Part shown: positions 9,650 through 44,321 of the stretch, piece after piece | Position numbering within the stretch: the first letter of the stretch is position 1 | How the letters are laid out: each line of letters begins with the position of its first letter | Notes under the pieces: generated by a model | Told to the model about the DNA's origin: nothing | Database searches by the model: none | Seen by the model: only the letters and a program-made list of their open reading frames with translations | Program-made: the position numbers and the translations under genes | NCBI GenBank assembly: GCA_029258885.1 | Contig: JAPDJW010000009.1 | Location: 108,879 to 172,878 of the forward strand | Source of the DNA: Thermoproteota archaeon | GTDB taxonomy: Archaea; Thermoproteota; Thermoprotei; Thermofilales; B9-G17 | Direction of reading: 5' to 3' | Length of the DNA: 64,000 bases

Positions 9650-11629
9650 TCAGGATGAAGACGGAGGAGGTGGAGGAGGCGGGGGTTGCTTTTTCTTTCT
9701 AGCTTTAAGGGCTTTTTCAAACGTTTTCTGGAAGTCTCCATATATTTTCCTGAATCCTATCGTAAGAACAAGCGACATCACTCCACTTAAGGAGGTATTC
9801 TGTAGAGTGCCTAATAGCGGCTTCAATAGCGTCGAGTTTATAATCCACTGGTATACTAGAAAGATTACTGCTACAATGGTTGTTGAAAGGAATGAGCTTG
9901 CACCGGAACCATATATTTTCACCGCAATGTAGCCGATGACGTAGCCTATGAACAGCCCTAGGAGACTGATGTAAAGCGACTGCTTAAATGTCATCGATAC
10001 AACAGAGCTAACTATCGCTGGAACCACAAACAGCATTACTAAAGTATATGGCAGCTCCCTCACGAAAATAAGGTCCTTAAACTCAGCCAACTTTTCTTCA
10101 TCTGTTAGTCCATATTCAACAGCGCGTTTAAGCATGAATATCGCTGATAAGACTGAAAACACAAGGAATCCATTGATATGTATTAGTTTAAACCAGTCCT
10201 CCGGAAACGTATGTCCACCCCAAAGATACTCGTAAGTTATTAACGTTACTCCCGGTAGTGCTTGAGCTGCCAATACTACAGCCATTATCTTATAGATGTA
10301 GTTTCCATACAGCTTATTATAGAATATGTCCTCATAGCCTTCAGGGGGAAGGCCCAGCTCAATAACTTCTGAGTATATAAACTCCTCTTCGAAGCGTTTC
10401 CTAAATAGAAGCCACAGTAGGGGCACGCCAATCCAATCCTGCGATAGAACCGTAGCATATACCATAACAGCTACTGTCATAGATATAGTGGGATTAAGCC
10501 CAGTTATTGATAGGTTATTGTAGAGGAAATATGCTATGTAGAGGGATATTAAGCCGTAGGCGAGCCCTAGCATAATCATAAGCCTACACATGTTCGTACG
10601 TAAATTGTCCTCTAGCTCATTCCAGTATAATGCGAAAAACAGTAAGCAGACAGAGAACAGTATAGCTGGCGCTATATATGTCGGGTTGTACGTTCTGTAA
10701 TACAAAGGATTAATGAGAGCTAAAGCCGTATTAACTGCGAGAAACGCTAACACTAACCATCTCGGAACACTTTTTACGATTCTATTCGAAAATGCTACAA
10801 GAGCTGAGGATAGCAGAATTATAGCCACAGCTATGCCTATATATGTATATGTTAAGTTTAGAACGAGGCTATAATCTGCAGTTCTCATATTCAGTCCAGA
10901 ACACCAGCAGAACACGTTCAATAGGAACTGGGCATTATCCTCCGAGTAAATATAGAAGTCGGAGAACATCGTTTCCGAGCCGAAGACTATAACTCTACCC
11001 TTACCATATACAGCTCCAGCAATAGGCGTAAAGTTGCCGTATACGATTTCATCTTTCTCGAAATCATATGCCGCAGTCTCATCATTAGGTAAAACTATGG
11101 GGTATGAAGGGCTATTAGCAACTAAAGCTATAGCATATGGGACAACGACCCTGCTAACATTAAAGCTGAACTCTTCCCTTATTCTGCTATATACAGGTAT
11201 ATTAATATCATCCCAAAACTTGAATACATTCACTGGATCGATGAGGCCATACGGCGTAACGGTAATATTTAGCGTATTTGTTAGCATAGATGGGTTAAAC
11301 AGGTTATGGATTACAACCATACCGCCACCGTTCTCCAGATACTTCAGGAAATTGTCATATGTCTCCTCAGATATAATGTCGGAGATGAAATAGTCGTAGG
11401 TTAAAACCATCCTGTACTCCCTAAGGCGGCTATAGGATATGTACCAGTCCCTATAGAATTCTATAGAGAAGCCATTGTCTTCTAGAAATCTAAATATTCT
11501 CTCATCTCCAGCAAACATCTCACCTGGATCAAATACTAGAATAGTAACCTTAGGAGAAGCACTTACTCTAAATATCGATACAAGCAACAGAATAAGTGTC
11601 AATATTAATGCTTTTCTCATTCTATTCAC
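9650..11629 (-). CDS. Polytopic membrane protein with N-terminal GATase-like/GIFT (GldG/IFT52-like) ectodomain and C-terminal Pro8 tail
   Basis: Signal peptide; YLENGGGMVVI and YGKGRVIVFGSETMFSD..DNAQFLLNVFCW; ~10 hydrophobic helices; ends KKKQPPPPPPPPSSS. Confidence 0.7.
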   Translation of the reverse strand: MNRMRKALILTLILLLVSIFRVSASPKVTILVFDPGEMFAGDERIFRFLEDNGFSIEFYRDWYISYSRLREYRMVLTYDYFISDIISEETYDNFLKYLENGGGMVVIHNLFNPSMLTNTLNITVTPYGLIDPVNVFKFWDDINIPVYSRIREEFSFNVSRVVVPYAIALVANSPSYPIVLPNDETAAYDFEKDEIVYGNFTPIAGAVYGKGRVIVFGSETMFSDFYIYSEDNAQFLLNVFCWCSGLNMRTADYSLVLNLTYTYIGIAVAIILLSSALVAFSNRIVKSVPRWLVLAFLAVNTALALINPLYYRTYNPTYIAPAILFSVCLLFFALYWNELEDNLRTNMCRLMIMLGLAYGLISLYIAYFLYNNLSITGLNPTISMTVAVMVYATVLSQDWIGVPLLWLLFRKRFEEEFIYSEVIELGLPPEGYEDIFYNKLYGNYIYKIMAVVLAAQALPGVTLITYEYLWGGHTFPEDWFKLIHINGFLVFSVLSAIFMLKRAVEYGLTDEEKLAEFKDLIFVRELPYTLVMLFVVPAIVSSVVSMTFKQSLYISLLGLFIGYVIGYIAVKIYGSGASSFLSTTIVAVIFLVYQWIINSTLLKPLLGTLQNTSLSGVMSLVLTIGFRKIYGDFQKTFEKALKARKKKQPPPPPPPPSSS

Positions 11630-11809
11630 CCTGCCTTATTGTAGTATTATAATCGCTAGGATTATATTAAATTTAAGGAAAAATGGGTTAAAAGATCTAG
11701 TGAACGTCATCATGTAATAATTGATTCAAAACACTATGAGAAATTGACATTTAAAAAAATAGCCTTATATATTATCCGAGGCCTATGAAAATAAATACCT
11801 AGATTGTAT

Positions 11810-14800
11810 TTACCACGGAGGTGGAGGAGGCGGAGGCGGGCGAACTTCCGCCTTCTTCCTACTTCTTCCTAGTGTTACTACAATGATGAAGCCAATAGCT
11901 ACTATAGCGATAACTACTATGGCTATATTTAATATGTTTAACTCTACTCTCCAGTTTGCCACTAAGTGTTTAGGCGAATCCATTGTTATATAGAGCTCAC
12001 GCTGACTCGAAGTTACATCGCCGCTCCATCCGGTAAATACCGCCACCTGGAATAGATTTATGTTAACTTTATCCTCTATCGAGACATGTGCAGTACTGCC
12101 TGCATCGTACCATCCGGCTCCGGACGGGCTACCGTATTGCGACTCTATGGTCAGCTTATACTGCCTAGCATAGTTTGCAACTAATGTCATTGGGCGATCC
12201 AGGAATACCGTTATAGTCGTATCCTGCACGCCCGTACTCCATCCCCTGAAAACTATTCTCTCATAGGGAGAAACCTGTATAGAATCAGCAACTGTAATCG
12301 TGTATTCACCATATCCAGTTATTTCCGCAATACCCTGTGCATCGGTCTTATACGTGACACCGTTTACGACAACATTCATATCGGGTATACCCGTCTCTAT
12401 CCTGAGAACAGCTCCAACAGCTTCAATAATAGCTGAAGCTTCACCAAAGTATGTTTGAGCTACAACCTCAAACCTGCCCGATTCATTAAATATAATGCTA
12501 AAAACGGCTCTTCCATGTTCATCAGTGTAGCCATAGTCAATGATGGAACCATTAACCAATAATCCAACGGCAACTCCACTGAGTCTTTCTCCACCGGTAG
12601 TTTCAACAGTTACTTCAATGTATACTTCTTCTCCAATTGAAGCTTCCTCGGGAGCATCAATACTTACGGAGGCAGCGACCTCCCTTACTATAGGCTCGAT
12701 CCTCCAAGAGGACGACCACCAGGCTCCAGCGAAGAGGTATTTTCCATCAGGAGTTAAAGCTATATGTCTAATCAGCCTGGTAGAGAGGCCTTTATTAAAC
12801 CTATAGATTCTCACGGTGTTGTCTGACGACCTAACGTCCTCGAGGAAGGCATAATACATGCCTTCGCCCTCAACGGATGAAATATACACTATTCCTCTGT
12901 TCCAGTCAACTCTGAGTGCCGTATACTGTTCCGCAGAGCTACAGAGGAAGGGCTGAAGAACCAATGTCTTAAAGCTGAGTGTAGTGCTTGAAATATCCGG
13001 ACAATAAATTATCTTACCCGTAGACTCCAGCGCCAGCATTTCACCGCTACCGCTGATAACTATTGATACTATTCCTCCCTCAGTTCTACCGCTGCTCGGA
13101 TAGACCTGCCTCCAAATAGTATTCTCCTTACTGGTTAGCAAGTTTTCAGCTATAAAGAGCCTGCTAGGACCATCCCAGAAGTAATGGTCGTTTCCCTCGG
13201 TCTTAAAGGTAGGTTCCCCCTCATAAGTCGCTAAAACCCATACATCTCTACCGCCAGCACGATATACCGCTATCCTGCACACCCCTCCATCCTGAGGTAA
13301 ACCTTTATTGGATATGAACCCACTGCGGCTGGCTAGGTCATATACTTCAACGCCATCCTCCTGAAGAGCTAAAACTACGTAGTGATCCACGAGAATCCCA
13401 TACACTGCTGGATTGCTCGTTAGGTTAACAGCTCCCTTTACAAGTAATTTACCTGTTTTCCTTGCCTCACATATATATTCGATGGATACCGCTATCAAGC
13501 CGTACCTCTTTGGAGCCTTACCCGATACTCCAGGAACGGGACCTGGATATCCAGTTATTATCAAAAGATCCAGTGGATAATCCTTTCCATCAACAGTAAC
13601 CTTATAGCCATACTCCTGTGGCAGAGGCAGTGCACACCAGGGGAACCCAGCCCTAATAGCTGTTGGAGGCAGGTCAAAACAGTCAAGCCAAGTATTTCCA
13701 TAGTCATAGGATATCTCGATGCCTGCCTGGCACACAACCATGAAAGTATGTGAAAACGGTTCTCTATTGAGGAACCATATCTGATTCATGCACTCCCCGT
13801 AGAGTCCCGAGTAAGATGGATTCCAAGTTCTTCCTCCATCCACCGTCTTAAGCAGACACCTGAAGGAGTAGGAGCAGGTATATGCTATCTTGGCTCCAAC
13901 GACACCATCTATAGTAATTGTATAGTCGTCCGGATTGTCTCCCTCTCCATGCTTATCTATTGCTATAAATGCACCCCATCCATTAGTTATAAACGAATGG
14001 AGAAATTCCTCTTTCACGGGATCCCATGCAAACACTCCAAATACGCACTCCTGAGGCTCGGGATAGGGATAGGCTCTCACCAGCTTTCCTGGAGTACCCC
14101 ACCATACCCTATTCGGATTATATGGATCAACTTCAACTTCACTTATAACAGGAATTATTGGCAGGGATATAGGCTTTAAGGCACCCTCTGTTGGATCTAT
14201 CCTCCTCCACTTCCAGCTATTGTGCTTATATTCTCCCCTATAAATCCAGTCATTATACGTCCCCAAGTATACGATATCATAGTCCACAGCCACATCTACG
14301 TCGGTTGTAGCCTTATCCATAAGCTTAATCCACTTCCACTCGCCTGTGAGATTAGTAGCCATGTATAACCCGCTGGGATACTTAGATACGAAGAGCGTAG
14401 GACCTAAACCAGCAAAGTCGGGGTCGTATGCAAGCCTATAGACGATCATCTTAACATTCTTCGGGACGACATCTGGGGGCAAAGCATGTCTTATGGCAGT
14501 CCATTCGCCACTACTTTCGTTGTATATCAGCTCATATATCCAGTTAATCTGTTTAGCCTGAGGATTAAGGCTCTTAATTCCAACATACAAGTGTTTACTG
14601 CTCAAAGCAACTATAGATGCAATTTCACAGAACTCCTTCTTCTCCAAATCCTCGTCTCCAGTATTAATTCTCCTCCACGAGAATCCATCGTCAAAGCTAA
14701 TATACATTCCTCCCTTGCCAGCTCCAGCAAATAACACACCTTCACTTTCAGCCATCGATACAAAGCCAACATCCACAAGGTTCTCCTCAGTAATCCTACT

Positions 14801-16432
14801 CCAGCTTCTAGCCCCATCAGTACTTCTAAAAGCGGAGTTACCAGTTGCAGATATGACAGTATGTTTCGACGTAACGTAAACGAAGTATTGATCCCCGCCG
14901 TCTGGACCTATATTCACCCACTCGCCGTCAAGAACCTTAACTCCTCTAGGCTGAGGTATCAGCGCAAGTACGCCCGGCAAATCGGGATCCCAGTTGTTAA
15001 AGTAAACTCTATCGGCCATTTCAGCTACTGATGCAATTTCAATCAGCTTCCTAACGTTAGTTACGTGGAGAAATTCTCTATCTGAAATCAGGTGATTCCT
15101 AACATTATCAAAGGTTATGTCGATATTAGCGGCGTTCTCAACCCCCTCCACGCTTCGTCCAGCCACGTACTCCAGATAGCTCATGTCAGGATTAAGCCTA
15201 ATCCATATACCCCTCTTCTTGAAAGCATTATAGTTAACAACAATATTCGGGAAGTCGGGCGCTGGACACATATGCTCCTTCAGGAATCCTAGCTGCATAA
15301 CCTTAAGCCAGGGAGCATTAGCAACAATTTCATCGTAGTGAAACCCCATATCCCTATTATACCAGAAGTTGTATGTTTCATCTAAATCCATAATAACGCT
15401 GGGAAGCCCCGCTAAAAGACCCTTTTCACTTGCAGCCTTAATCACCAGGTAGGAATACACCTTCCTAACACGACCCTCAAGCACAACTATCCAAGGCCTA
15501 AATATGTAATCCTCATAGGGATCTATCCTACCATTACCGTTTAGATCGGTGTTGTAGAACACTCCTCCCCCGGTATAGTCCGGCTTACCATTGCCATTAT
15601 TATCGAGGTAAAAGCCTACAGTGTTATCATAGCTAAGAGTGGTAAAGTTAATGAAACACCACGTCTCGTTGCATGTACCCGGAACGTAGTTCGGATTCCT
15701 CATATCGTTCCACGGCAATCCATCTCCATCAGCATCATAGTTCGGCTGCTTATCATCCCCATTCCTACCTAAATCGGTAGTAGTAAGGAAGTTTGTAGCA
15801 GGGCTCTCATAGAAGACTATGTATTTAACGTTCTCAAGGCCACTACTATATCTGGCGAAAACCATAGCAGCCATAACTCCGCCGTAGGATGAGCCATACA
15901 TGCCGACATTATCCGTTAAAACCTGATAGTCGACGTAATCACCTATAGTCTTACCGGAACCACTTGCAAGTTTTCCCTGAGCAAAACGAAGCACTGAATA
16001 GAGTGCCTCATAGCATGCATCACCCCTATAGTCGTAGATCCCACCGCTTTCAAGGTAAAGCTTTTCACCGGAAGGCGTCTTAAACGTAGTATTACCTCCT
16101 GGGAAAATAAAGTATATCCATATTATGCCATGAGGATCCCAATCATAGTCTAGAAATGGAAAGAAGCCAGCGTATGGGCCGCCATGCACGTATACGACAA
16201 CGGGAGCGGCTGAACCATATCTAGGCTCCTTAGGATAAAGCATTAAGGTAGCAACACCCTTAGATCCAGCGGAGGAACACGGTATCCAGAATATAACAGC
16301 ATAAAACTTCTCAAACTCGTATGGACCGTATTCCTCCGGAGAGGCAATTGGCTGAGCTTGAAGGAACATTAGCTGAGGTCCGGTAATTAGTAGTAATATG
16401 TATAACGATATTAAAATTCTACGTATGTGCAT
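11810..16432 (-). CDS. Giant surface protein: alpha/beta-hydrolase domain, BNR/Asp-box beta-propeller, Ig-like and repeat stalk, C-terminal TM, Pro8-Trp tail
   Basis: Likely ATG at 16432 after GGTGA RBS (track uses TTG 16519). PVVVYVHGG and GMYGSSYGG nucleophile elbow; DxDxDG-like loops; Asp-boxes STDGARSW, SFDDGFSW, TVDGGRTW, SYDYGNTW; YGSPSGAGWY repeat; TM then RPPPPPPPPW. Confidence 0.8.
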   Translation of the reverse strand: MHIRRILISLYILLLITGPQLMFLQAQPIASPEEYGPYEFEKFYAVIFWIPCSSAGSKGVATLMLYPKEPRYGSAAPVVVYVHGGPYAGFFPFLDYDWDPHGIIWIYFIFPGGNTTFKTPSGEKLYLESGGIYDYRGDACYEALYSVLRFAQGKLASGSGKTIGDYVDYQVLTDNVGMYGSSYGGVMAAMVFARYSSGLENVKYIVFYESPATNFLTTTDLGRNGDDKQPNYDADGDGLPWNDMRNPNYVPGTCNETWCFINFTTLSYDNTVGFYLDNNGNGKPDYTGGGVFYNTDLNGNGRIDPYEDYIFRPWIVVLEGRVRKVYSYLVIKAASEKGLLAGLPSVIMDLDETYNFWYNRDMGFHYDEIVANAPWLKVMQLGFLKEHMCPAPDFPNIVVNYNAFKKRGIWIRLNPDMSYLEYVAGRSVEGVENAANIDITFDNVRNHLISDREFLHVTNVRKLIEIASVAEMADRVYFNNWDPDLPGVLALIPQPRGVKVLDGEWVNIGPDGGDQYFVYVTSKHTVISATGNSAFRSTDGARSWSRITEENLVDVGFVSMAESEGVLFAGAGKGGMYISFDDGFSWRRINTGDEDLEKKEFCEIASIVALSSKHLYVGIKSLNPQAKQINWIYELIYNESSGEWTAIRHALPPDVVPKNVKMIVYRLAYDPDFAGLGPTLFVSKYPSGLYMATNLTGEWKWIKLMDKATTDVDVAVDYDIVYLGTYNDWIYRGEYKHNSWKWRRIDPTEGALKPISLPIIPVISEVEVDPYNPNRVWWGTPGKLVRAYPYPEPQECVFGVFAWDPVKEEFLHSFITNGWGAFIAIDKHGEGDNPDDYTITIDGVVGAKIAYTCSYSFRCLLKTVDGGRTWNPSYSGLYGECMNQIWFLNREPFSHTFMVVCQAGIEISYDYGNTWLDCFDLPPTAIRAGFPWCALPLPQEYGYKVTVDGKDYPLDLLIITGYPGPVPGVSGKAPKRYGLIAVSIEYICEARKTGKLLVKGAVNLTSNPAVYGILVDHYVVLALQEDGVEVYDLASRSGFISNKGLPQDGGVCRIAVYRAGGRDVWVLATYEGEPTFKTEGNDHYFWDGPSRLFIAENLLTSKENTIWRQVYPSSGRTEGGIVSIVISGSGEMLALESTGKIIYCPDISSTTLSFKTLVLQPFLCSSAEQYTALRVDWNRGIVYISSVEGEGMYYAFLEDVRSSDNTVRIYRFNKGLSTRLIRHIALTPDGKYLFAGAWWSSSWRIEPIVREVAASVSIDAPEEASIGEEVYIEVTVETTGGERLSGVAVGLLVNGSIIDYGYTDEHGRAVFSIIFNESGRFEVVAQTYFGEASAIIEAVGAVLRIETGIPDMNVVVNGVTYKTDAQGIAEITGYGEYTITVADSIQVSPYERIVFRGWSTGVQDTTITVFLDRPMTLVANYARQYKLTIESQYGSPSGAGWYDAGSTAHVSIEDKVNINLFQVAVFTGWSGDVTSSQRELYITMDSPKHLVANWRVELNILNIAIVVIAIVAIGFIIVVTLGRSRKKAEVRPPPPPPPPW

Positions 16433-16631
16433 GACATCACCTAAACTAAGGTATACCTTAACTAAATCAGCGAATAAATAAACAGTAATGTTTTTAATAT
16501 CGCTTACGATTAACTTCAAAAAGCTATAATATTACATACCGGAAATATAGTCAGGCATGCATCATAAGATAAATAATTTAGATAAATTAAAAATTATCTA
16601 AATAATTACGTTAAAACGGATGATTATCTAA

Positions 16632-17465: not shown

Positions 17466-17568
17466 GGTTATAGAGATACATTAATAGACTATATATTGCT
17501 TAACATGCATCCTTCAAATAGCGGCTAGCTAAATGCTTAGGCAAAGCTTATTAATTCTATAGCATTCT

Positions 17569-17594: not shown

Positions 17595-17603
17595 GGTGGA
17601 ACT

Positions 17604-21356: not shown

Positions 21357-21881
21357 CTAGTAGGGAGGAGGCGGTGGAGGCGGAGGAACAGCTACAGGTC
21401 TTTTAACCTCCTCAGGCTTATGTAAGAAATACGCTATAAACATAAATACTCCGCCAGCCATTACGACTAATGGTCCTAATCCAAAACCTATGCTCGCGCC
21501 TAGTAAACTCCCATATTTAGACAAAATCCTCGATTTTATCATTTCAATCATTGCTATCCAGCATATTCCAGCTACTATAAGTAAGATTCCAGAGGCAATT
21601 TTTGCTTTCTTCGATACGAGGGCTACTATTCCAATCAATACTCCCAGACCATAGGATATAAGCGATGCTGTACCTAGAAACTCCTCGGTTGTCTCGGGAG
21701 CTCTAATGTTAACTCTGAAGCTCTCAGGCACGTTTTTCGCAACTGATATCATATCGTATAGGCTCATTTCAAGTGATAGAAACGCTACCTTTACTGTAAA
21801 CCACGGCAGGAAGAGGGCAACTATAGCTGCTACAAGCCCTATTAAAGCCACAATTAAGGATACAATGTGGATTTTCATCAA
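21357..21881 (-). CDS. Small multi-TM membrane protein with C-terminal Pro8-Tyr tail
   Basis: 4 hydrophobic helices, LFLPWF motif, ends VAVPPPPPPPPY. Confidence 0.75.
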   Translation of the reverse strand: MMKIHIVSLIVALIGLVAAIVALFLPWFTVKVAFLSLEMSLYDMISVAKNVPESFRVNIRAPETTEEFLGTASLISYGLGVLIGIVALVSKKAKIASGILLIVAGICWIAMIEMIKSRILSKYGSLLGASIGFGLGPLVVMAGGVFMFIAYFLHKPEEVKRPVAVPPPPPPPPY

Positions 21882-21951: not shown

Positions 21952-24900
21952 TTAAGGATCCCTAATGATTCTTGATAGCTCTTTAATTATTCTGCTTTTT
22001 GTGAGCATATTTATCCGAGATTCATAGTCTACAGCGGCTTTTGTCACCCTAACTCTGTTTTCAATCTCTTTTCTCACCCTACTCCATATCTCGCTGAAGT
22101 CATCGTATAGGACGTCGTTCTCAGTAAGTATAGGTTTCTCTATCTCTGTGATCTCGATCTCCTCTGCCGCGAGCCTCCAAATCATGTCTGAAAGCCTATC
22201 TAAAGCAGATGCAAATATCTCCATTACCTTAGCGTATGCACTCAAGATTGGGGCATACCTGGATCCCGGCATTAAATTTAAAGCACTTGAAAGCTTCCTA
22301 AGGACATCTCCCGGCGTCCTCGGCTTCTCCAGGAGCCTAAGCACTGATGTAATCTTTTCAGTTACCTCCTTAACTCCATCCAGTCCTATACCCTCACTCT
22401 CGATTCTCACAGTATTTTCGCCAAGATACTGTCCGGTAGATACAGCTTTCTGGCAGCTCTCCATAACTTCAATAGCATTCTCAAGAGCCTCTCGTATAGC
22501 CCTTATGAAATCTTCCTCCTCCTCAATAGCCTTAAGTTCCTCGCTGGACAGGAAGTCCCAAAGCCTTTCTCTAGCCATAGCCTTCTTAAAGTTCTTCTTT
22601 ATATTCTCAAACCTTCTCCTAAATTCCGTTAGTTTATCAGAGAACTCCTTCACTTCTCCTTCAAGGTCTGATGGATCGGGAAGCGACCTGTAGCTTCCGG
22701 ACGCACTATAATATTTAGTTAAAACCTTATTCTTATCCTTCAGGTAGCTTCTCCATATCTCCCAGCACTCCTCACGCGTCTTAACGGCTTGAAGCTTAGC
22801 CCTGTAAACATCTACTCTACTCCTCAGGCTAACAATATCATCTACAGCTTCATCAAGCCTTGCATATGTCTGCTCGCCCCTATCAATGTATTCTTTAACA
22901 CGTTCATTAAACGAGTTGAGGTCCTCAAGCACACCTTCAATTTCAGAAATAATATCATCCAATGGGAGGAGTGCGCCCTTAACCCTATCTATCAGATCAG
23001 GTCTACACGGCGGATTGCTCTTATATTCTTTAATATTCTCCTTAAGCCCGCGGAAATGCTTATCTAGGTCGTTCAGCGACCCGAGTATGTTGCGGTACTC
23101 CTCAATCTTCCTTCTACACTCGCCTCTCTCAGAGGCAGCTTCCCTAATTAACTTAGTAAGCTCATCTATCTCATTACGAAGCAGCCGGTCAACCTTATCC
23201 CTACACCTCCTCAGCTCCAGCTCGCAGCTCCTATACTTCTCCTCTAAGGCATCAGCAAACTTATCCACCTTATCCCGCATAGCCTTAAGAGATCCAATAT
23301 TCCTCCTAAGCTCGGATGCCATTTCGTCAAGAGCCCTTATATCGGCCTCAAGATCCCTAATTCTACTCTCCTCCTCAGTAAGCCTCTTAACGCCCCTCCA
23401 GTAATCCCTAATAACCTTACGTAGCTCCCTCCTGAACGAGTTAAACCTTCTAAAGAACTCATCAACTCTATCGGTTAAGTTTATCCTAACTCCGCAGAGC
23501 TCTATATAGTCCCTCCCCTCCCCGTCGGAGACCATGTCATGAAATATGTTTCTAACGTAATCGCCCGCCTCATCAATCCCACGCTTAATCCTCAAAATGT
23601 TACGTTTAGCCTCAGCAAGCTCATCCCGCTTCAGGGAGAGGTTCTTTTCAACTCCATTCAGCTTGCTCTCGTACTCGCTTATCGCCTTATCTATAATGCC
23701 GTCCCTTATATCCATGACCTCCTTATACAGCCTATATATCTCATCACACGTAAAGCACGCAGGATTCAAGGCCAGAATTCTGTTGAGTAGATCCAGAGCC
23801 CTACCAACCCTAATAGCTAGGTCGTCGAGGAGAAGCTTACGCCTACTCTTCGACTCAGATAACTGGACATCCAGCTTAGCTATCTCATCCTCAGCCTCCT
23901 TAAGCCTGCTCCTAAGCCTCGATAGGATCCTATCATACATGTTGATGGCAGCCTTTAAACCCCTATTCGCCATATAGCTACGGGTATAGTCTCCAGCAGC
24001 CTCAGCGCGCCTTGCAATATCCTCATAGAACTTAATACACTCATCCCTACTAGCCTCAGCCCTAGCGATCTTATCGTTTAGAAAATCCCGCATAGCCTTA
24101 GCCCTATAGTACCTCGACAACATATCTCCCAACTTTAAGGTTTCATCGAGAAGATTCTTAGCTGCACTAGATATTCCCGACAGCTCATCCACTATCTGCT
24201 TTCCAAACATGTTAAACGCAACCTTCTCCCTAGCACAAGGCTTCCTCCTACTGTAGTACAAGACGCCGCCGCCTAAACCGAAGGCTGCAAGAAGAATAGC
24301 TATAATAGTTGCTGAAAATGGAACGATAACAGTTATCTCCTTATCCTCCGTCAGCTCAACCGTAATAAACCTATCATAGAATAGACAGCTTACCCTAACA
24401 TTATACGTCCCAACCGGAAGCTTACCTAATAGAACGGATCCATCTCCATGTACTGTTAGAGTTTCACCGTCAGGTAGAACGGTGGATGCTGTGATGCCTG
24501 ATACAGCTATTCCCAGCGGATCGACCACGTTGATTTTCAGGTCGTAGACTCTACAGTCGATCGTGAAGGACTTGGATCCATCAACCTTAAAAACTACAGC
24601 CTCCAGGGGCTTTACGTCAGCACCCCTATACTGTACCAGCGTTAGAGTATATATGCCCTCCTTAAGCCACACATTAACGTACTCCGTTAATATTAGCTTA
24701 ACTCCATCACAGGCTATCTCGATTGCATTGGGAGTTATTTCCTCGCCCTTAGATTTAATAAACCTAAAGCTTACGAGGAAGTATCGATCCCAGTTAGCTA
24801 TTAGGACATAGGGCTTATCCACCCTAAGGGTGAATGAGCTACGGTTGATGGTTAAATCCCCAATCCATTCTCTAAACTCAACCTTCGTCCCGTTATCGAA

Positions 24901-26085
24901 CTCTAGGATGGGCGTAATACTTATCGTCACGTTGCTACCTGCAGGATGCCATCCATCCCCCTTGGGATAGTCGTATCTCGAAATGAGGGTTACTAAGTGG
25001 TATATCCTCCACTTCGCCGTGATGTTTATAGGATCTGCGAGGGAGCCTACAACTAGCTGAGGTTTACTTGGATCAAGCGTATTCCTACCCCAGTCGCCTT
25101 CCCACGAGACAAATACCGCCTTACTTCCATTGCCCACCATAACCTCACTCTGTTTCACTCCAAGCTGAACCGTGCTGCCCTCCTTATACCATCCGCTTCC
25201 ATAGGCTTCCCCATAGGGCGAGCTAACGATAACCCTATACTCGGCGTCGTATTCGCATGTGCCGTTGAACCCATCCTCATCTATATAGACTTTCCTAGGA
25301 TTATCCGTAACGCCGTCGCTCCATTCGACGAAGACATACCTTATATCATCTGATACGTTTATAACTGGGGGAACGTATATCTCGTGCCATCCAACAGGTA
25401 TGTAGGCTGTAATCTCACCATCCTCAGCTACATACTCGACTCCATCTATAACCACGTAGGTTACGTTAACTGGGACGTATATCTCAACAGGCGTCTCAAG
25501 GGCATACCTTATTAGGGTTGAATATTCCTCATCAGGCGTAAAGTCCCCGCACACGTACTCGTACTCGGTGACAACCCTCCAATTAAGCTCCTTAGGCTCC
25601 TCGTTAAGCCCTAGCTCGCTTTTAGGTATAAGGAGAGCTAGTGCAGTAGAGTTTTCAAGATATGCTTGAGCGGAGGTTGATACGTCATCCCAACCCCAGC
25701 TCCTATATACGCTGGCAGAAACTCCTAATCCCTCATAGAGTGTTATTGAATACATTGTATCGCAGTAGTTAAATGGAGCATCCTGACAGTTATTCCCGGG
25801 ATCTCCGTCCCTATCGAAGAGCACGTAATAGTAAGTCTTTTTCTCAGTAACCTCAGGTATTTCACCATAGACGTTTATTACAACCCTGAGGAAATTCTCC
25901 TCCTCAAATACGGCAATGCACTTAACGTCCACGAAACCTACGTAGCCTGAAGCCGCTCCGCCAGTCCATATGTCAAGCAGATCATTGTCGGGATCCTCTA
26001 TAAAATCCATGTAGATATAGGCTGAGGCATAGCTATTGAGAAAAAGCGCAATAATAAGTAAACTAATTATATACCTTCTTTTCAT
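21952..26085 (-). CDS. Giant single-pass membrane protein: ectodomain with repeat stalk, TM, ~760-aa helical/coiled-coil cytoplasmic region
   Basis: Signal peptide; beta-rich DPDND domain; YG..GSGWY..GS repeats; TM ATIIAILLAAFGLGGGVLYY followed by SRRK; long E/K/R/L-rich heptad region. Confidence 0.8.
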   Translation of the reverse strand: MKRRYIISLLIIALFLNSYASAYIYMDFIEDPDNDLLDIWTGGAASGYVGFVDVKCIAVFEEENFLRVVINVYGEIPEVTEKKTYYYVLFDRDGDPGNNCQDAPFNYCDTMYSITLYEGLGVSASVYRSWGWDDVSTSAQAYLENSTALALLIPKSELGLNEEPKELNWRVVTEYEYVCGDFTPDEEYSTLIRYALETPVEIYVPVNVTYVVIDGVEYVAEDGEITAYIPVGWHEIYVPPVINVSDDIRYVFVEWSDGVTDNPRKVYIDEDGFNGTCEYDAEYRVIVSSPYGEAYGSGWYKEGSTVQLGVKQSEVMVGNGSKAVFVSWEGDWGRNTLDPSKPQLVVGSLADPINITAKWRIYHLVTLISRYDYPKGDGWHPAGSNVTISITPILEFDNGTKVEFREWIGDLTINRSSFTLRVDKPYVLIANWDRYFLVSFRFIKSKGEEITPNAIEIACDGVKLILTEYVNVWLKEGIYTLTLVQYRGADVKPLEAVVFKVDGSKSFTIDCRVYDLKINVVDPLGIAVSGITASTVLPDGETLTVHGDGSVLLGKLPVGTYNVRVSCLFYDRFITVELTEDKEITVIVPFSATIIAILLAAFGLGGGVLYYSRRKPCAREKVAFNMFGKQIVDELSGISSAAKNLLDETLKLGDMLSRYYRAKAMRDFLNDKIARAEASRDECIKFYEDIARRAEAAGDYTRSYMANRGLKAAINMYDRILSRLRSRLKEAEDEIAKLDVQLSESKSRRKLLLDDLAIRVGRALDLLNRILALNPACFTCDEIYRLYKEVMDIRDGIIDKAISEYESKLNGVEKNLSLKRDELAEAKRNILRIKRGIDEAGDYVRNIFHDMVSDGEGRDYIELCGVRINLTDRVDEFFRRFNSFRRELRKVIRDYWRGVKRLTEEESRIRDLEADIRALDEMASELRRNIGSLKAMRDKVDKFADALEEKYRSCELELRRCRDKVDRLLRNEIDELTKLIREAASERGECRRKIEEYRNILGSLNDLDKHFRGLKENIKEYKSNPPCRPDLIDRVKGALLPLDDIISEIEGVLEDLNSFNERVKEYIDRGEQTYARLDEAVDDIVSLRSRVDVYRAKLQAVKTREECWEIWRSYLKDKNKVLTKYYSASGSYRSLPDPSDLEGEVKEFSDKLTEFRRRFENIKKNFKKAMARERLWDFLSSEELKAIEEEEDFIRAIREALENAIEVMESCQKAVSTGQYLGENTVRIESEGIGLDGVKEVTEKITSVLRLLEKPRTPGDVLRKLSSALNLMPGSRYAPILSAYAKVMEIFASALDRLSDMIWRLAAEEIEITEIEKPILTENDVLYDDFSEIWSRVRKEIENRVRVTKAAVDYESRINMLTKSRIIKELSRIIRDP

Positions 26086-36985: not shown

Positions 36986-36989
36986 TCTT

Positions 36990-38204: not shown

Positions 38205-38298
38205 GTAGCCACCAATCTAAAATATAGTTATGCCTTAATTATCTTATCCGTTGAAATAATGGATAAACATAGATAAGTAGAGAGCTACATAGCTATAG

Positions 38299-39456: not shown

Positions 39457-39463
39457 AGATAGC

Positions 39464-39516
39464 GTAAACCGTCTGTAAACTACTCAAGTTTACGATATCG
39501 TAAACCTACCGTAAAC
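39464..39516. repeat. Five GTAAAC hexamers at 11-13 bp spacing including an 18-bp perfect palindrome
   Basis: GTAAAC at 39464, 39475, 39500, 39511 and GTTTAC at 39488; GTTTACGATATCGTAAAC 39488-39505. Confidence 0.7.
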
Positions 39517-39669
39517 TTTTAGTACGCAGGGTTTCCGGTTCTCTTTCTGCACGTTTCACCAATCCCCATCTAGTATTTCATTAAGTTTTTAACTACAACT
39601 CATCTCAACATATCGATTTCACAGGCGATAAGCGAAACAGGAATATAATCATAGTCAAGGTATATAGAT

Positions 39670-40230: not shown

Positions 40231-40265
40231 CTGATTTTCTGAAATGAATTTAAAAGTCCAATCGC

Positions 40266-42107
40266 TTAGCTGAGGATTCTATTAGCCTTGAAGAGTCTAG
40301 TATAAGCTTTAATTTTTCTCAGTAGTATGCCTGCTATAGGACATACTTTAATACATTTTTCGCATTTAGAGCATTTATCTAGGTTTATTTGAAGATTTCT
40401 TCCCCTAAGGCTAATGCTTTTATTAGTACACACTTCTAGGCAGGCTCTGCATTGGATGCAGTAGTTGGCCATCCCATAGGCCTGTACTATTTTAGCTAAG
40501 AGTATTGGTAGGTATTTGGAGGATCCCATTATCTCTATTTTATTGCCCACCAACATTCCCTTGCATTTTCTATATGAAAGCTTATCTCCTCTAATCTCAA
40601 CTTTAAGTATATTGAGTATATCTCTAAATGATTCGGAGGGAGCACTTCTAAAGATTATAATTATTTCTCCCTTAGAGATTTTCAGGGAGAATATTTCTTC
40701 AATGCTTCTTTCAACTACCTTAGCCAGGTTTAAGCCTGTCCTTCTAGCGGTTTGCCATGCGTGAGGAGGATGCTTACACAGCCATCTCCATAAACCGTAG
40801 TCGATCCATCTTGAATCGATATTCCTCTCTCTACAGTGTTTTCTCAGTTTTTCAAGCCACCATCTATACTGTTGCCCATAAAACTCCTCTATCCTTCTGA
40901 AATCTACCATATGCAGTGTGGGACACATAAAGCACCCGATACGCGGTAGCCCCTTCGAGTAGAGTGGATTAACCTCGATCTTATTTAAGTAGAGATATGC
41001 GTATACGTCAAGCGTGGTCCAGTCGAGTATAGGCGACATAATGTACTTAGCTTTACCGGGAATATTCGATTTAGCGAAGTATCCTGCACGAGCTCTCTTA
41101 GGCGACTCGTACTTCCTCTGACCAGTAATAGACACTACATCCTCTAGCGGATATCTCTTTTTAAGGAAGCTATTTAATGGGAGTATCTTAAGAACTAGAG
41201 TACACCACCTGTTATCTCTAGCGGGAGGACCATGTCTTCTAAATATTTCCTCGAAAAACCTCCAGTTTGCATATACTTCATGTAGCTCAGCTCCTATCCT
41301 CGCCCCTATACGTCTAGAGTATTCAAGGGACATAGTAAACTCCAGTCCAGTATTACTTAAGACAGCCTCACATATCCCTGCCTCATACGCGATGGATAAA
41401 ACCGTAGTACTATCTTTCCCGCCCGAAAAATTTACGATAGGTTTTATCCCTCCTTTAGAACAGTATTTCTCGATTAGTTTAAGGGATTTCTCCTTAAGAA
41501 ACTCAACCCTACTCGAGAGATGTTTAAAAATCTCCGTAATGCTTCTCCCTACAGGCCGCTCTATCCGCTCCTTAGGCCACACTTCCTCTACAACTATATT
41601 TCTTCCAGATAAATGGAGAATACCGAAGGTTTTCCTAGCGGTAAAGGGCACGTATGCCTCTCCTTCAGGCAGATTCCCTTCTACGATGTCCACCCTACTT
41701 AGATATCTCCCTCTAGGATAATCGTCCTTAAGTTCAACGTAATACCCAAGCTTTTCCTCAGCTATGAGCCCCGCTACTCTACCCCAAGGCTTAACGATAA
41801 AATCCCTTCTAACACAATCATATTCAACTACTAAACCCTTCTCTCCCGTAATAACGACCTCATCAACGGAGTCCAAGTGATAGACTCTATTAAGTAGGAT
41901 GGGGTCTACGAGAACTTTACTATAATCACTAATTCCAAGCTTTTCCCTTAAGAGCCTCCTTAACAGCTCTACATCACATGGAAAAGCTGGCCTCGGATCA
42001 TAGGGTGGACTAACATTAACTGGTAAAGTTTTCTCACCACATAAAGGACAATAACTGGAGAAAACAGGCAAATTACAGCTTCGACACCACTTCAACTCCA
42101 GTTCCAC
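40266..42107 (-). CDS. PAPS-reductase-domain protein with N-terminal Zn ribbon and C-terminal 2x[4Fe-4S] ferredoxin domain
   Basis: WCRSC..CPLC, PP-loop FSGGKDS, RWCT, GQRKYESPKR, RIGCFMCP, CIQCRACLEVC and CSKCEKCIKVC. Confidence 0.85.
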   Translation of the reverse strand: MELELKWCRSCNLPVFSSYCPLCGEKTLPVNVSPPYDPRPAFPCDVELLRRLLREKLGISDYSKVLVDPILLNRVYHLDSVDEVVITGEKGLVVEYDCVRRDFIVKPWGRVAGLIAEEKLGYYVELKDDYPRGRYLSRVDIVEGNLPEGEAYVPFTARKTFGILHLSGRNIVVEEVWPKERIERPVGRSITEIFKHLSSRVEFLKEKSLKLIEKYCSKGGIKPIVNFSGGKDSTTVLSIAYEAGICEAVLSNTGLEFTMSLEYSRRIGARIGAELHEVYANWRFFEEIFRRHGPPARDNRWCTLVLKILPLNSFLKKRYPLEDVVSITGQRKYESPKRARAGYFAKSNIPGKAKYIMSPILDWTTLDVYAYLYLNKIEVNPLYSKGLPRIGCFMCPTLHMVDFRRIEEFYGQQYRWWLEKLRKHCRERNIDSRWIDYGLWRWLCKHPPHAWQTARRTGLNLAKVVERSIEEIFSLKISKGEIIIIFRSAPSESFRDILNILKVEIRGDKLSYRKCKGMLVGNKIEIMGSSKYLPILLAKIVQAYGMANYCIQCRACLEVCTNKSISLRGRNLQINLDKCSKCEKCIKVCPIAGILLRKIKAYTRLFKANRILS

Positions 42108-42333
42108 AAAAACCCCTCTTAAGCCTGAGAGTAGAATATATCCTATGTATCGATGACCTCCGTATCTTTTGTAATATTTCCTAAATAAGCTAGATTAGTT
42201 TTACTCTAGGAAGAACAGTATTTTCATAGAATTTCCATTCCCATACATTTTAGGTAGACTTTACCTAGATAGTTGTCACAAAATTACCTATGAAATTTGC
42301 CTAGAAGGTTATGCGACAGCTGTTGGATGAAAC

Positions 42334-43599
42334 TTAAATCCATCCTCTGAGCTTCATTGCCTCAACAACCCTGGATACAGCTATAGCGTATGCAGCTGTT
42401 CTCATAGGTTCATCACTGTACTTGCTTGTCCACTCACTATAGACGGTGTCGAAGTTCATACTCATTTTCTCGTCGAGGCGCTTAAGTGCGTCCTCATCCT
42501 TAAGCCAGCAGCCCATTTTATTGTGACACCACTCAATCCAGCTCATAATTACTCCGCCAGCGTTAGCCAGTATATCCGGTATATCCACAACTCCCTTTTC
42601 CTTAAGGATGATGTCTGCTTCAGGTGTAACCGGCCCATTAGCTCCCTCCGAGATTATCTTAGCCTTAATTCTGTCGGCGTTTTCCTCGGTAATTACGTTC
42701 TCTATTGCTGCTGGAATGAGAATATCGACATCCAGCTCCAGCAGCTCCCTATTTGAAATTTTCCTCCCTTCAGGATAATTTATAACGCTCCTAGTTTTCT
42801 CCTTAACCTCAACAAGTCTGTTAAAGTTCAGCCCATCAGGGTTGTATATCCCTCCCTTACTGTCGCTCACTGCAATGACCTTGGCGCCCCACTCAATAGC
42901 GTAATACATAGCCCATCTTCCCACGTTACCGAATCCCTGAATAGCTACAGTTTTGCCCTCAAATCCGCCTAAAACCTTCTTAGCGGCCTCTCTAGCAACC
43001 AATGCAACCCCGTATCCAGTGCTAGTAATCCTAGTCTTCAAACCCCCCAGCAGATATGGCTTAGCGGTAACAACCCCCCAGTCGTCGTATCCTACAATCT
43101 TACTATACTCATCGAGGAACCACGCCATAACCTGAGGATCCGTATAGACGTCAGGAGCAGGTATATCGATATCGCTTCCAACGAACCTAGCTATAGCCCT
43201 AAAATATCCTCTAGACAGCTCCTCCAGCTCCCTCCTCGATAACGCCTTAGGATTAACCCTAACTCCACCCTTACCTCCGCCATAGGGTAATCCAGCTAAA
43301 GCGTTCTTCCAAGTCATCCACATTGATAAAGCCACAACCTCTCCCACTGTAACTTCGGGATGGTACCTCACGCCGCCCTTATAGGGTCCAAGGGCACTAT
43401 TATGCTGACTCCTCCATCCAAGGAAAACCCTTATAGAGCCATCATCCATTTTAACTGGAATCTTAACTTGAATAAGCCGCTCGGGATGCATAAGCGCCTC
43501 GACAACCTCATCCTCAAGCCCCAGAATTCTGGCAACATTCCTAAGCTGTCTAACAGCCATACGGTAAACTTTCTCATCCATATATGGGGCATAACCCAT
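42334..43599 (-). CDS. gdhA: Glutamate dehydrogenase (Glu/Leu/Phe/Val dehydrogenase family)
   Basis: GPYKGGVRYHP, GGGKGG, DIPAPDV, IQGFGNVG, EGANGP, DILANAGGV. Confidence 0.96.
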   Translation of the reverse strand: MGYAPYMDEKVYRMAVRQLRNVARILGLEDEVVEALMHPERLIQVKIPVKMDDGSIRVFLGWRSQHNSALGPYKGGVRYHPEVTVGEVVALSMWMTWKNALAGLPYGGGKGGVRVNPKALSRRELEELSRGYFRAIARFVGSDIDIPAPDVYTDPQVMAWFLDEYSKIVGYDDWGVVTAKPYLLGGLKTRITSTGYGVALVAREAAKKVLGGFEGKTVAIQGFGNVGRWAMYYAIEWGAKVIAVSDSKGGIYNPDGLNFNRLVEVKEKTRSVINYPEGRKISNRELLELDVDILIPAAIENVITEENADRIKAKIISEGANGPVTPEADIILKEKGVVDIPDILANAGGVIMSWIEWCHNKMGCWLKDEDALKRLDEKMSMNFDTVYSEWTSKYSDEPMRTAAYAIAVSRVVEAMKLRGWI

Positions 43600-43634
43600 A
43601 TGGACACCTGAGAATGTAAAAACCTTAAGGATAT

Positions 43635-43796
43635 TTATCTTCTGCCATATATCATGTAGTTATAGAGTTGCCTCAGGTAGTTCCTTAAGCCTTGAATCTC
43701 CTTCTCTAAATTTGCTACCCTCTGCTCGAGGAGGACGATCCTCTCTCTAAGCTCAATGTAGTTCCTCCTAAGCTCCCTAATTTCCTCACTTGACAT
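43635..43796 (-). CDS. Small 53-aa leucine-zipper/coiled-coil protein (below ORF-track cutoff)
   Basis: Manual translation MSSEEIRELRRNYIELRERIVLLEQRVANLEKEIQGLRNYLRQLYNYMIYGRR; fills the gap between two minus-strand genes. Confidence 0.65.
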   Translation of the reverse strand: MSSEEIRELRRNYIELRERIVLLEQRVANLEKEIQGLRNYLRQLYNYMIYGRR

Positions 43797-43847
43797 GCTC
43801 ATCGCCAAGTTTTAAATAAGTATTTTATCGATAAAAATTTTAGTATT

Positions 43848-44321
43848 TTAAGTAGGCGGTGGAGGAGGTTGCATCCTATATATCAATCCAGTTATCTGAG
43901 TCTGCCACCACTCCGGATTACTAACACACTTCAAAACGATCTCATACACGTTTCTGCCACCCGTATCTATAAGCACGTCGCCATAGTTGAATATGCTCCC
44001 AGCAAGCCCTTTAACAACTTTAACGCCAGTAACCTGGCTGAGAATAACGTCATCAATAGTCTTCCTAATGGATCCGCGGATAAGCCTAACCCTAAAATTT
44101 GTCAAAACGTAGGTAGTCCTAGTACGTGAGGCTTCAGCATAAATAACCGGAATTATTGAAGCAAGAGCTAGGGAAAGTGCAAGAAGCTCCTTTTCAGAGA
44201 AGAGGTATATTAGAATGGCTGAGGCAAGTAGGAGCACGGTCAGGATATAGTATGGAATGTACTTAGCCCTGGACGGGTGAGCCTTAGCTATAATCCGCTC
44301 GCCCTGATACAGATCCCTCAA
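43848..44321 (-). CDS. Bacterial-type PH domain (bPH_2-like) membrane protein with C-terminal Pro5 tail
   Basis: 2 TM, TTYVLTNFRV..G, IFNYGDVLIDTGG; ends MQPPPPPT. Confidence 0.8.
   Translation of the reverse strand: MRDLYQGERIIAKAHPSRAKYIPYYILTVLLLASAILIYLFSEKELLALSLALASIIPVIYAEASRTRTTYVLTNFRVRLIRGSIRKTIDDVILSQVTGVKVVKGLAGSIFNYGDVLIDTGGRNVYEIVLKCVSNPEWWQTQITGLIYRMQPPPPPT

Follow-up and report, generated by a model that had tools for sequence, protein, structure and literature searches.

Terminal polyproline tails on membrane and soluble proteins of a hot-vent Thermoproteota archaeon, with cytoplasmic docking as a tentative role

Proline-tailed genes in the window

The window (the whole stretch of DNA analysed, 64,000 nucleotides) derives from an uncultured hot-vent archaeon whose 2.10-Mb genome is 99.9% complete. 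The sequence was re-read at four minus-strand open reading frames for which C-terminal proline tails had been described. All four frames and tails matched that description, and the mixed CCN codon strings quoted for the P8 runs were exact. The features are listed below.

9650-11629 (-): gene of a 659-aa protein with a signal/anchor peptide, a DUF4350/GIFT-like domain, approximately 10 TM helices and the tail KARKKKQ-P8-SSS
9662-9685 (-): P8 run of the 659-aa protein, CCC CCG CCT CCT CCA CCT CCT CCG, followed by three Ser codons and the stop
11810-16519 (-): gene of a 1569-aa type-I surface protein with a signal peptide, a large ectodomain and a single C-terminal TM helix
11816-11839 (-): P8 run of the 1569-aa protein, followed by Trp and the stop
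11840-11869 (-): basic juxtamembrane linker of the 1569-aa protein, GRSRKKAEVR (5 K/R)
11870-11926 (-): C-terminal transmembrane helix IAIVVIAIVAIGFIIVVTL of the 1569-aa protein, from hydropathy analysis
21357-21881 (-): gene of a 174-aa protein with four to five TM helices and the tail HKPEEVKRPVAV-P8-Y, KRPVAV preceding the run
21363-21386 (-): P8 run of the 174-aa protein, CCT CCG CCT CCA CCG CCT CCT CCC, followed by Tyr and the stop
43848-44321 (-): gene of a 157-aa protein with two N-terminal TM helices and a bacterial PH domain (bPH_2), ending YRMQ-P5-T
43854-43868 (-): P5 run of the 157-aa protein, followed by Thr and the stop

The four proteins were mutually non-homologous, as originally proposed; they were not linked by all-against-all BLAST, and their Pfam assignments differed. 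For the 659-aa protein the Pfam matches were weak (DUF4350/GIFT-like, plus multi-TM). Its homologs ended in P10-SS at 91% identity and in P9-K at 53% identity, and a homolog at 30% identity carried a coiled-coil tail in place of the run. A 3-base insertion adjoined the P8 run in a natural strain (approximately 88% identity).

The 1569-aa protein gave a weak Pfam match to Big_1 and had paralogs with beta-propeller and InlB-B-repeat domains; the InlB-B-repeat region of its ectodomain was common to five proline-tailed paralogs. Its P8 run was kept in contigs of three other samples (at least approximately 95% identity), and six bases (two Pro codons) were missing from the run in one strain contig (approximately 89% identity). 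The 174-aa protein was an orphan, with only itself recovered among 5.8 billion clusters, no Pfam family and no related loci. The P5T end of the bPH_2 protein was shorter than the runs of all other tail members and was absent as a terminal run from all 149 other HMMER homologs, the nearest of which (35% identity) had a zinc ribbon behind a PPPP linker. Its membership of the polyproline-tail class is doubtful.

Census and spread of terminal proline runs

A proteome of 2157 ORFs was called from the genome and searched as a whole. Sixteen proteins of approximately 11 unrelated families (0.7% of the proteome) ended in a run of 5-12 prolines followed by 0-4 residues. Runs of seven or more prolines occurred 19 times, 15 of them C-terminal, two N-terminal and two internal. 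With uniform placement, 0.38 C-terminal runs (no more than four residues from the end) were expected against the 15 observed, and none of 200,000 simulations gave more than five; the clustering at C-termini is far beyond chance. Of 26 homopolymer runs with six or more residues, 20 were proline. Since proline runs of 4-6 residues were mainly internal, the long terminal runs are regarded as a distinct class, and run lengths were bimodal with a floor at seven.

Terminal runs measured 7-12 residues in this genome, with eight as the mode; in relatives the lengths were 7-14 and 29. The special status given to exactly eight prolines in the original prediction was not borne out, as orthologs read P8/P10/P9 and P7/P9/P9/P9/P7 and whole-codon indels were present among natural strains. 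The proposed enrichment on membrane proteins did hold (13 of 16 carriers versus 30.5%, Fisher p=4e-5; by family 8 of 11, p=0.005). The other three carriers were soluble and included coiled-coil and zinc-ribbon proteins.

The run usually lay 4-12 residues past the last membrane helix, after a basic patch. Basic residues preceded many of the runs, three tails ended in PPPY or PPVY, four ended directly in Pro-stop, and the end residues differed among orthologs. Among C-terminally anchored proteins only 10 of 313 carried a tail. Plain basic tails ended the closest paralog of one P9 protein, as they did at least seven further surface proteins of this kind; a 917-aa P9 protein had an untailed twin of 905 aa. 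Because of these untailed paralogs and the 10/313 share, the polyproline tail is taken to be an added property and not a requirement for anchoring.

The same TM-basic-polyproline-stop design was seen again elsewhere in the phylum, five or more further Thermoproteota families having it. A crude nucleotide proxy for tails, (CCN)7 followed by a stop or Trp codon with the reversed pattern as control, was enriched in Thermoproteota and not in Asgard or Thermoplasmatota genomes. Raw (CCN)7 counts were dropped as a measure of tails, most matches being off-frame in high-GC relatives. Tail distribution across Thermoproteota was patchy, with no obvious co-distributed machinery. The literature searched contained no account of archaeal membrane proteins that end in polyproline.

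Topology of the carriers and selection on the run

Basic residues after a TM helix mark the cytoplasmic side (the positive-inside rule), and a cytoplasmic location had been proposed for all four window tails. For the 1569-aa protein the basic linker GRSRKKAEVR places the tail in the cytoplasm by this rule. Across the genome a cytoplasmic tail was supported for seven type-I single-pass proteins and for the bPH_2 protein, while four proteins were ambiguous: the DUF996 protein and the N-terminal run of L013 leaned outside, and the PLDc_N and 659-aa proteins were ties. In the seven type-I carriers the sole anchor lay within approximately 40 residues of the stop.

The claim of protein-level selection on unrelated proteins was upheld by the mixed codons and by the orthologs, which kept a pure proline run with rewritten linkers and third positions. 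The linker was rewritten and third positions were scrambled, with an unbroken terminal run retained, in PLDc_N and DUF996 as well as in the L004/L103 and L008/L104 pairs. Tail retention among orthologs was seen at 53% and at 30% identity, and the soluble coiled-coil and zinc-ribbon carriers also kept the tail in their orthologs. What drifted among orthologs was the linker, the codon third positions, the run length (7-10) and the end residues. The CCC codon was depleted in tails (8% versus 20% genome-wide), and no tail contained more than five consecutive C. Judged from these comparisons, the run is under purifying selection as a pure proline run.

The arrangement resembles the PGF-CTERM and PEF-CTERM archaeosortase signals in being a recurrent C-terminal signature on unrelated surface proteins, with a TM helix and a basic cluster. 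The order is motif-TM-basic in those signals and TM-basic-motif in the present tails, in which the basic cluster after the helix was not the chain end but was followed by 7-12 prolines. No PGF/PEF-like motif was seen before the TM helices of the carriers. The tails also differ in being cytoplasmic, in showing no sign of cleavage, and in that soluble proteins, multi-pass proteins and N-termini carry them too.

Docking and alternative roles of the tails

A cytoplasmic polyproline-II docking tag for a putative reader is the best reading of the tails, and is preferred tentatively. The run would act as a short linear motif at the terminus, its 7-12 residues forming a rigid polyproline-II rod, approximately 2-4 nm long, that projects from the very end of the chain; on membrane carriers it would stand a few residues past the last helix and basic patch, on the cytoplasmic face. 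There it may be a docking ligand for a putative cytoplasmic reader common in Thermoproteota. The tagged subset would consist of small membrane proteins, receptors or adhesins of the surface with beta-propellers, and a few coiled-coil and zinc-ribbon proteins. The reader could assign all of these to one common fate, for example clustering, attachment to a scaffold beneath the membrane, or sorting. Both the binding by a reader and the effect of binding are parts of the model that we infer.

Docking is favoured by the purity and end position of the runs, by their retention beside rewritten linkers, by their selectivity and by their recurrence in other families. It is also supported by the run lengths, because a minimum of approximately seven and a mode of 8-10 match the footprint of a polyproline-II reader. 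Profilin needs roughly 6-10 prolines, whereas ribosomes stall at as few as three and exopeptidases are blocked by one or two. The tails are like the ligands of profilin, SH3, WW, EVH1 and GYF domains of eukaryotes (and of some Asgard profilins) in that 7-12 contiguous prolines is a ligand length; for profilin that length is approximately 6-10 or more contiguous residues, and the runs fall within it. A basic residue often precedes the run, which recalls the +xxPxxP context, and some tails read PPPY or PPVY, with end residues that vary among orthologs. The cytoplasmic side is shared with these ligands, the carriers here being receptor-like membrane proteins and coiled-coil proteins. The tails differ from these systems in that no reader domain was detectable and in consisting of proline alone at the very end of the chain, and the host differs from those of the Asgard profilin systems in being a crenactin-bearing member of the Thermoproteota. 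A pure proline rod would probably stay preorganised at high temperature and may be favoured as a linear motif in thermophiles. In known polyproline-II systems the ligand need not sit at the chain end, so docking by itself does not account for the strict confinement of the runs to termini. The patchy distribution, the four ambiguous topologies and the use of proline runs as plain linkers also count against docking.

The readers named in the original prediction were searched for in the 99.9%-complete genome and were not found. Profilin (PF00235) gave no match at E<=1, in a sequence search that could miss a very divergent profilin fold, and SH3_1, WW, GYF and WH1/EVH1 readers (PF00018, PF00397, PF02213, PF00568) gave none at the same threshold. 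An ESCRT-associated reader fared no better in the Pfam search: no convincing CdvA/B/C was present, MIT matches were weak (E>0.16), and CdvA and Snf7 fell below the cut-off. The Snf7, MIT and CdvA searches are too insensitive to prove absence of ESCRT-III, the Snf7 model missing even Sulfolobus. Vps4_C matched only in two-domain, Cdc48-like ORFs of 720-890 aa. To our knowledge, the binding of the ESCRT-III MIM2 by the MIT domain of Vps4/CdvC in Sulfolobus is the only experimentally shown recognition of a proline-rich peptide in Thermoproteota; that motif is patterned, the present one a homopolymer, and a patterned proline motif together with an MIT-domain Vps4 was not found in the genome.

Crenactin, for a cytoskeletal reader, was present as proposed but did not track tail abundance. 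Of 31 relatives, 30 encoded it, however many tails they had, including G008 with no tails and G011 with few, and it was ruled out as a correlate. Glutamate dehydrogenase pointed to Desulfurococcales (71-76% identity), a placement judged misleading in view of the crenactin carried by 30 of 31 genomes of the order; the enzyme was probably transferred or is paralogous. A PH-like plus zinc-ribbon gene adjoining the gene of a P11 coiled-coil protein was rejected as a reader candidate, the adjacency being absent in 5/5 relatives with the PH-like gene. The PH-like protein belonged to no Pfam family, and the P11 coiled-coil protein was narrowly distributed. Structure prediction for an aromatic tandem zinc ribbon (of a PRC-barrel protein) with the P11 tail gave a score of 0.02, which is no verdict on binding.

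Eukaryotic cell cortices are organised by short linear motifs and the proteins that read them, and we know of almost nothing comparable in archaea outside ESCRT. The present tag is very simple, selectively retained and easily synthesised, and it sets apart a restricted group of surface and scaffold proteins throughout an archaeal phylum that includes lineages with cultured members. With a bare P8-P10 peptide, the sub-membrane partners of archaeal surface proteins would be open to direct peptide testing. In a far more speculative extension, which must be considered a long shot, a putative polyproline reader, profilin- or talin-like in function and unrelated in sequence, would couple outside to inside: chosen surface receptors or adhesins, together with some coiled-coil scaffold proteins, would be attached through it to the sub-membrane crenactin cytoskeleton or to a different scaffold. 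Thermoproteota would then have a minimal docking code with an origin separate from the eukaryotic SH3/WW/profilin toolkit.

An unlikely alternative is a device of translation or membrane biogenesis, in which the run slows elongation and termination at the end of the ORF or plugs the last helix in the N-out/C-in orientation. In the pause variant, Pro-Pro bonds would depend on aIF5A and release after Pro would be slow; in the plug variant, run and basic patch would be non-translocatable and the chain would be released with the last helix still in the ribosome tunnel. Membrane-protein enrichment, the 4-12-residue spacing, the nearness of the only anchor to the stop in the type-I carriers and the four Pro-stop ends all fit such a device, as does the patchy phylum-wide spread, no lineage-specific reader being required. 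According to a review, polyproline segments also occupy strategic sites close to TM regions and N-termini, and a/eIF5A aids termination as well (PMC12856214). Like the pause motifs rescued by EF-P or a/eIF5A (PMC12856214), the tails place consecutive prolines near TM segments or chain ends, and aIF5A dependence is expected; their sequence contains the stall motif of PPP or longer. They differ in far exceeding the length needed for a stall (PPP is enough, and 7-12 residues are left unexplained), in being conserved as pure runs past the last helix at the stop, and in occurring on soluble carriers. Moreover, 303 of the 313 C-terminally anchored proteins, closest paralogs included, do without a tail, and from the length of the tunnel the last helix would still be inside it at the stall, so that a pause could not expose it. 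A purely surface-protein reading of the tag and the membrane-insertion pause of the original prediction are both weakened by the three soluble carriers and the few N-terminal runs. Docking fits better than a membrane-biogenesis device because the soluble coiled-coil and zinc-ribbon proteins keep the tail.

It is quite unlikely that the runs are end caps, shielding cytoplasmic chain ends from exopeptidases, AAA+ unfoldases or membrane proteases and prolonging protein life in heat. X-Pro bonds resist most exopeptidases, and a cap would agree with runs that are strictly terminal at both C- and N-ends, with variable and unimportant last residues, and with carriers both soluble and membrane-bound. 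Against it, one to three prolines would be enough, yet no tail is shorter than seven except the doubtful P5T; only 0.7% of proteins would be capped, and nothing indicates that the carriers are otherwise unstable. Should a translational or proteolytic role prove true, the tails would offer a clear example from nature of chain-end homopolymers that serve protein biogenesis or stability in thermophiles.

Very unlikely, too, is a linker remnant or tolerated low-complexity extension, in which linkers that lost or never gained a C-terminal module are kept by triplet slippage and weak selection. Proline runs do serve as plain linkers before zinc ribbons in the same lineage. PLDc_N homologs carry, by lineage, polyproline, a P/Q-rich stretch with a zinc ribbon, or a zinc ribbon alone; L150 of a relative has a TM helix, a proline-rich stretch ending in P7, approximately 10 residues and a ribbon; and a proline linker followed by a ribbon occurs in the nearest bPH_2 homolog and in the PH-like protein (P5-6 as an internal linker in 2/5 relatives). 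Whole-codon indels among strains are also in keeping with slippage. A neutral stub is disfavoured because it would gain substitutions or a premature stop, whereas the runs stay uninterrupted at 30-53% ortholog identity despite a fully rewritten linker. Codon mixing and CCC avoidance speak against recent slippage, as do the bimodal lengths and floor at seven against a remnant. For annotation, a terminal run of at least seven prolines after a TM helix and basic patch is better recorded as a feature than as low-complexity noise.

The last alternative, a C-rich RNA or DNA signal near the stop with the prolines as by-product, was suggested by the position of the tracts at 3' ends of ORFs and their resemblance to CCUCC and is close to refuted, every genomic (CCN)7 tract encoding in-frame proline (0 intergenic, 0 off-frame, 0 poly-Gly on the other strand) and the amino acid alone, not the nucleotide sequence, being conserved between orthologs.

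Proline-tailed proteins of the window and the genome

Re-reading of the open reading frames confirmed exactly the four minus-strand ORFs reported to end in proline runs, and the codon strings quoted for the tails were correct.

9650-11629, minus strand: 659-aa multi-pass protein ending KARKKKQ-P8-SSS, with weak DUF4350/GIFT-like Pfam matches
11810-16519, minus strand: 1569-aa giant type-I surface protein of an InlB-B-repeat/beta-propeller paralog group, ending TM-GRSRKKAEVR-P8-W
21357-21881, minus strand: 174-aa orphan protein ending KRPVAV-P8-Y, no Pfam family
43848-44321, minus strand: 157-aa protein with a Pfam bacterial PH domain (bPH_2), ending MQ-P5-T

The four were unrelated, as had been proposed: BLAST among them gave no link, and their Pfam assignments all differed. 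The first two genes were adjacent and co-oriented, 180 bases apart (9650-16519, minus strand). Directly adjoining the orphan gene was that of a 1377-aa protein (21952-26085, minus strand) with a signal peptide, an ectodomain, one TM helix and, in the cytoplasm, some 780 aa of coiled coil (ATG17-like Pfam match). Its ectodomain held the InlB-B-repeat region common to the Pro-tailed propeller family, as though this ectodomain had been coupled to a scaffold in place of a Pro tail.

The genome (2.10 Mb, 26 contigs, 40% GC, 99.9% complete) was represented by a simple set of 2157 ORFs without overlaps (90% coding), 16 of which ended in P5-12 followed by 0-4 residues. Runs of at least seven Pro numbered 19, with 15 lying within four residues of the C-terminus, two within ten of the N-terminus, and two internally in one zinc-ribbon protein. 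Uniform placement predicted 0.38 C-terminal runs, and the maximum in 200,000 simulations was 5. Runs of 4-6 were mostly internal, which sets the long terminal runs apart as a class of their own. The proteome held 26 homopolymer runs of at least six residues, 20 of them Pro, and the only terminal run of another residue was one of Leu, in a hydrophobic segment at the N-terminus. Every genomic (CCN)7 tract was an in-frame Pro run.

Six of the 16 carriers, the 1569-aa protein among them, were paralogous type-I surface proteins whose ectodomains contain beta-propellers and InlB-B repeats. The remaining ten were mutually unrelated (about 11 families in all): a PQQ-propeller/Ig surface protein, the 659-aa and a 326-aa multi-pass protein, a DUF996 protein, the 174-aa orphan, the bPH_2 protein, a 77-aa PLDc_N mini-protein, and three soluble proteins, namely a zinc-ribbon/GIFT-like protein (end E6-Q-P10-E), a glycine-zipper coiled coil (P8-A) and a 102-aa coiled coil (P11-G). 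The DUF4350/GIFT-like (GldG/IFT52-type) domain of the 659-aa protein also occurred in the soluble P10-tailed zinc-ribbon protein (L004). Two contig ends (C1:79-104 and C13:78-106) repeated the tail-coding DNA of C1:4131-4156 and C12:22-50, which places assembly breaks inside the propeller family; the assembly may have lost or collapsed one or two more of its members.

Topology, selectivity and conservation

Enrichment for TM proteins was upheld: they made up 13/16 of the carriers but 30.5% of all proteins (Fisher p=4e-5), and 8/11 when counted by family (p=0.005). In the membrane carriers the last helix was followed by a short, usually basic linker and then the run. The cytoplasmic location originally predicted held wherever the positive-inside rule gave a clear reading, for seven single-pass proteins, the bPH_2 protein and an N-terminal run (L015), and probably held for the 326-aa and 174-aa proteins and for a second N-terminal run (L014), the last by a weak 2-to-1 count. 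It did not extend to the PLDc_N and 659-aa proteins, which were ties, or to the DUF996 protein and a third N-terminal run (L013), which leaned outside. For PLDc_N a cytoplasmic tail is argued for by homologs with a zinc ribbon at the same position.

A last helix within 35 residues of the C-terminus was present in 313 proteins, of which only 10 were tailed. For the 917-aa P9 protein, the nearest paralog (905 aa, 829 bits) was untailed, ending ...IFRHKHKFINKKK, and plain basic tails were likewise seen on seven or more further related surface proteins with a TM anchor. Since these paralogs and 303 of the 313 anchored proteins lack it, anchoring does not depend on the tail, which adds a property to selected proteins.

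Homologs of the 659-aa protein ended P10-SS at 91% identity and P9-K at 53%, with a coiled coil instead at 30%. Homologs in the propeller family still had P8 or P10 when 40-98% identical and P7-DQA when 30% identical; one that was 27% identical lacked the tail. Within the order, PLDc_N orthologs ended P7-A, P9-A, P9-G, P9-S and P7-SLS, DUF996 orthologs P8-VY and P7-VS, and two soluble ortholog pairs P10-E/P10-SL and P8-A/P8. In these PLDc_N, DUF996 and soluble sets the linker before the run was wholly rewritten and third codon positions were scrambled; persistence of the run despite this bears out selection at the protein level. CCC supplied 8% of tail Pro codons against 20% genome-wide, and no tail held a C stretch longer than 5.

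A selected length of eight, in contrast, was not sustained. Orthologs ranged from P7 to P10, and four independent samples (vent or sediment) gave contigs with whole-codon indels at or beside the runs (-6 bases at 11817 in one strain; +3 bases at 9659); P8 was kept in strains at about 95% identity or more. What the sequences conserve is a terminal stretch of about 7-12 uninterrupted Pro, free in its exact length and last residues. The P5-T protein was the weakest member, having the shortest run and no terminal run in any of 149 other homologs.

Distribution among relatives

The sister genus (G001) had nine Pro runs: six C-terminal, one 13 residues before the stop and two N-terminal (for example MASL-P10-KKR-TM). 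The TM-basic-P7-9-x0-4-stop design also occurred in three other genomes of the order (G012, G005 and G023). Extreme runs were a protein ending in 29 consecutive Pro (L125, G025:C41:2448-2537) and an internal run of 20 (L139, G023:C1:116326-116384).

Wider sampling used a GC-robust proxy, seven Pro codons directly before a stop or Trp codon, with the reversed pattern as control and totals counted by hand.

Proxy sites by phylum (genomes with sites; sites; reversed control)
Thermoproteota: 60/401; ~90; ~35
Asgard: 18/201; 25; ~30
Thermoplasmatota: 38/201; 74; ~77

The genome holding the window had the most sites of any in the Thermoproteota sample: six, of which five were unique. Outside the order, 20 sites from Thermoproteota were sampled; 13 ended long open frames, 11 of them directly behind a hydrophobic segment and in five different families (for example LLLRRQRL-P10, LIRRFRR-P9 and LLRRKKPAPPPAYTA-P8); the others were off-frame noise from high-GC genomes. 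By these counts and sites the habit is enriched in Thermoproteota, where its distribution is patchy, and has been amplified in the lineage of this genome. In the PLDc_N family (two-helix small membrane proteins, L159-L238) the cytoplasmic tail varied by lineage: polyPro in Thermoprotei, terminal P5 in one Thermofilaceae and one Bathyarchaeia genome, and none in Asgard. Thermoplasmata combined a P/Q-rich stretch with a zinc ribbon, and most bacteria (Terriglobia and Verrucomicrobia among them) had just the ribbon.

The window's glutamate dehydrogenase (42334-43599, minus strand) was 71-76% identical to Desulfurococcales MAGs and only 59% to genomes of its own order (L074/L075, in G005/G012). 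Horizontal transfer or a different paralog may account for this, and the gene taken alone is a misleading taxonomic marker here.

Candidate roles and the search for a reader

Being terminal, pure, at least seven residues long, selective, cytoplasmic where readable, present on soluble proteins too and kept amid drift, the run is best regarded as a functional terminal motif. Full-text literature searches returned no description of such a pattern; the nearest known kinds are proline-rich linear motifs and C-terminal tags. We tentatively favour a polyproline-II docking tag, in which the terminal Pro rod of selected proteins would be the ligand docked by a putative reader. In length the run corresponds to the footprint of known readers, and it is longer than ribosome stalling or a block to exopeptidases would require. 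Its restriction to some paralogs is reminiscent of an address label, and the soluble carriers misfit membrane-biogenesis models.

The leading rival is a pause or delayed termination that depends on aIF5A, or else a plug that cannot be translocated and serves last helices emerging late (compare PMC12856214); it seems unlikely given the soluble carriers and a run longer than stalling needs. A protective end cap is less probable again, the run being longer than exopeptidase blocking needs. A linker remnant, with which the Pro runs preceding zinc ribbons in this lineage agree, is given a slightly lower chance still, and an RNA-level signal is nearly excluded by the reading frame and the lack of nucleotide conservation.

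The main weaknesses of the docking reading are that it leaves the need for a chain end unexplained and that the models searched yielded no reader. The eukaryote-type readers originally named (profilin, WW, GYF, SH3_1 and WH1/EVH1 models) had no match at E<=1 in this 99.9%-complete genome. The suggested ESCRT link was likewise without support there: MIT, Snf7 and CdvA gave sub-threshold matches only, the Snf7 model being too insensitive to prove absence, and Vps4_C matches fell in Cdc48-like two-domain ATPases. Crenactin, also proposed, was present in full length outside the window:

C2:404199-405470 (L252:1066-2337), plus strand: crenactin, E=8e-111 to PDB 4CJ7/4BQL

It does not discriminate, since 30 of 31 genomes of the order have it, including one without any Pro runs. 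Downstream lay a 234-aa coiled-coil gene and then an SMC/Rad50-like gene, an arcadin-like arrangement. The tail motif is trivially synthesised, so the question of a partner is directly testable.

A PH-like/zinc-ribbon gene beside the P11 gene was rejected as reader because the neighbourhood was not conserved. One complex prediction, of an aromatic tandem zinc ribbon with the P11 tail, scored 0.02, a value that speaks neither for binding nor against it. Two identical aromatic zinc ribbons (CPTCGKPARWIPQYKRWWCDNC) followed a PRC-barrel head and a Pro/Ala-rich linker in a 179-aa protein (L284, C1:119299-119838, minus strand). The same type of ribbon ended a PH-like protein (C1:601686-602291) and the nearest homolog of the bPH_2 protein, and in all three it was preceded by a Pro-containing linker.
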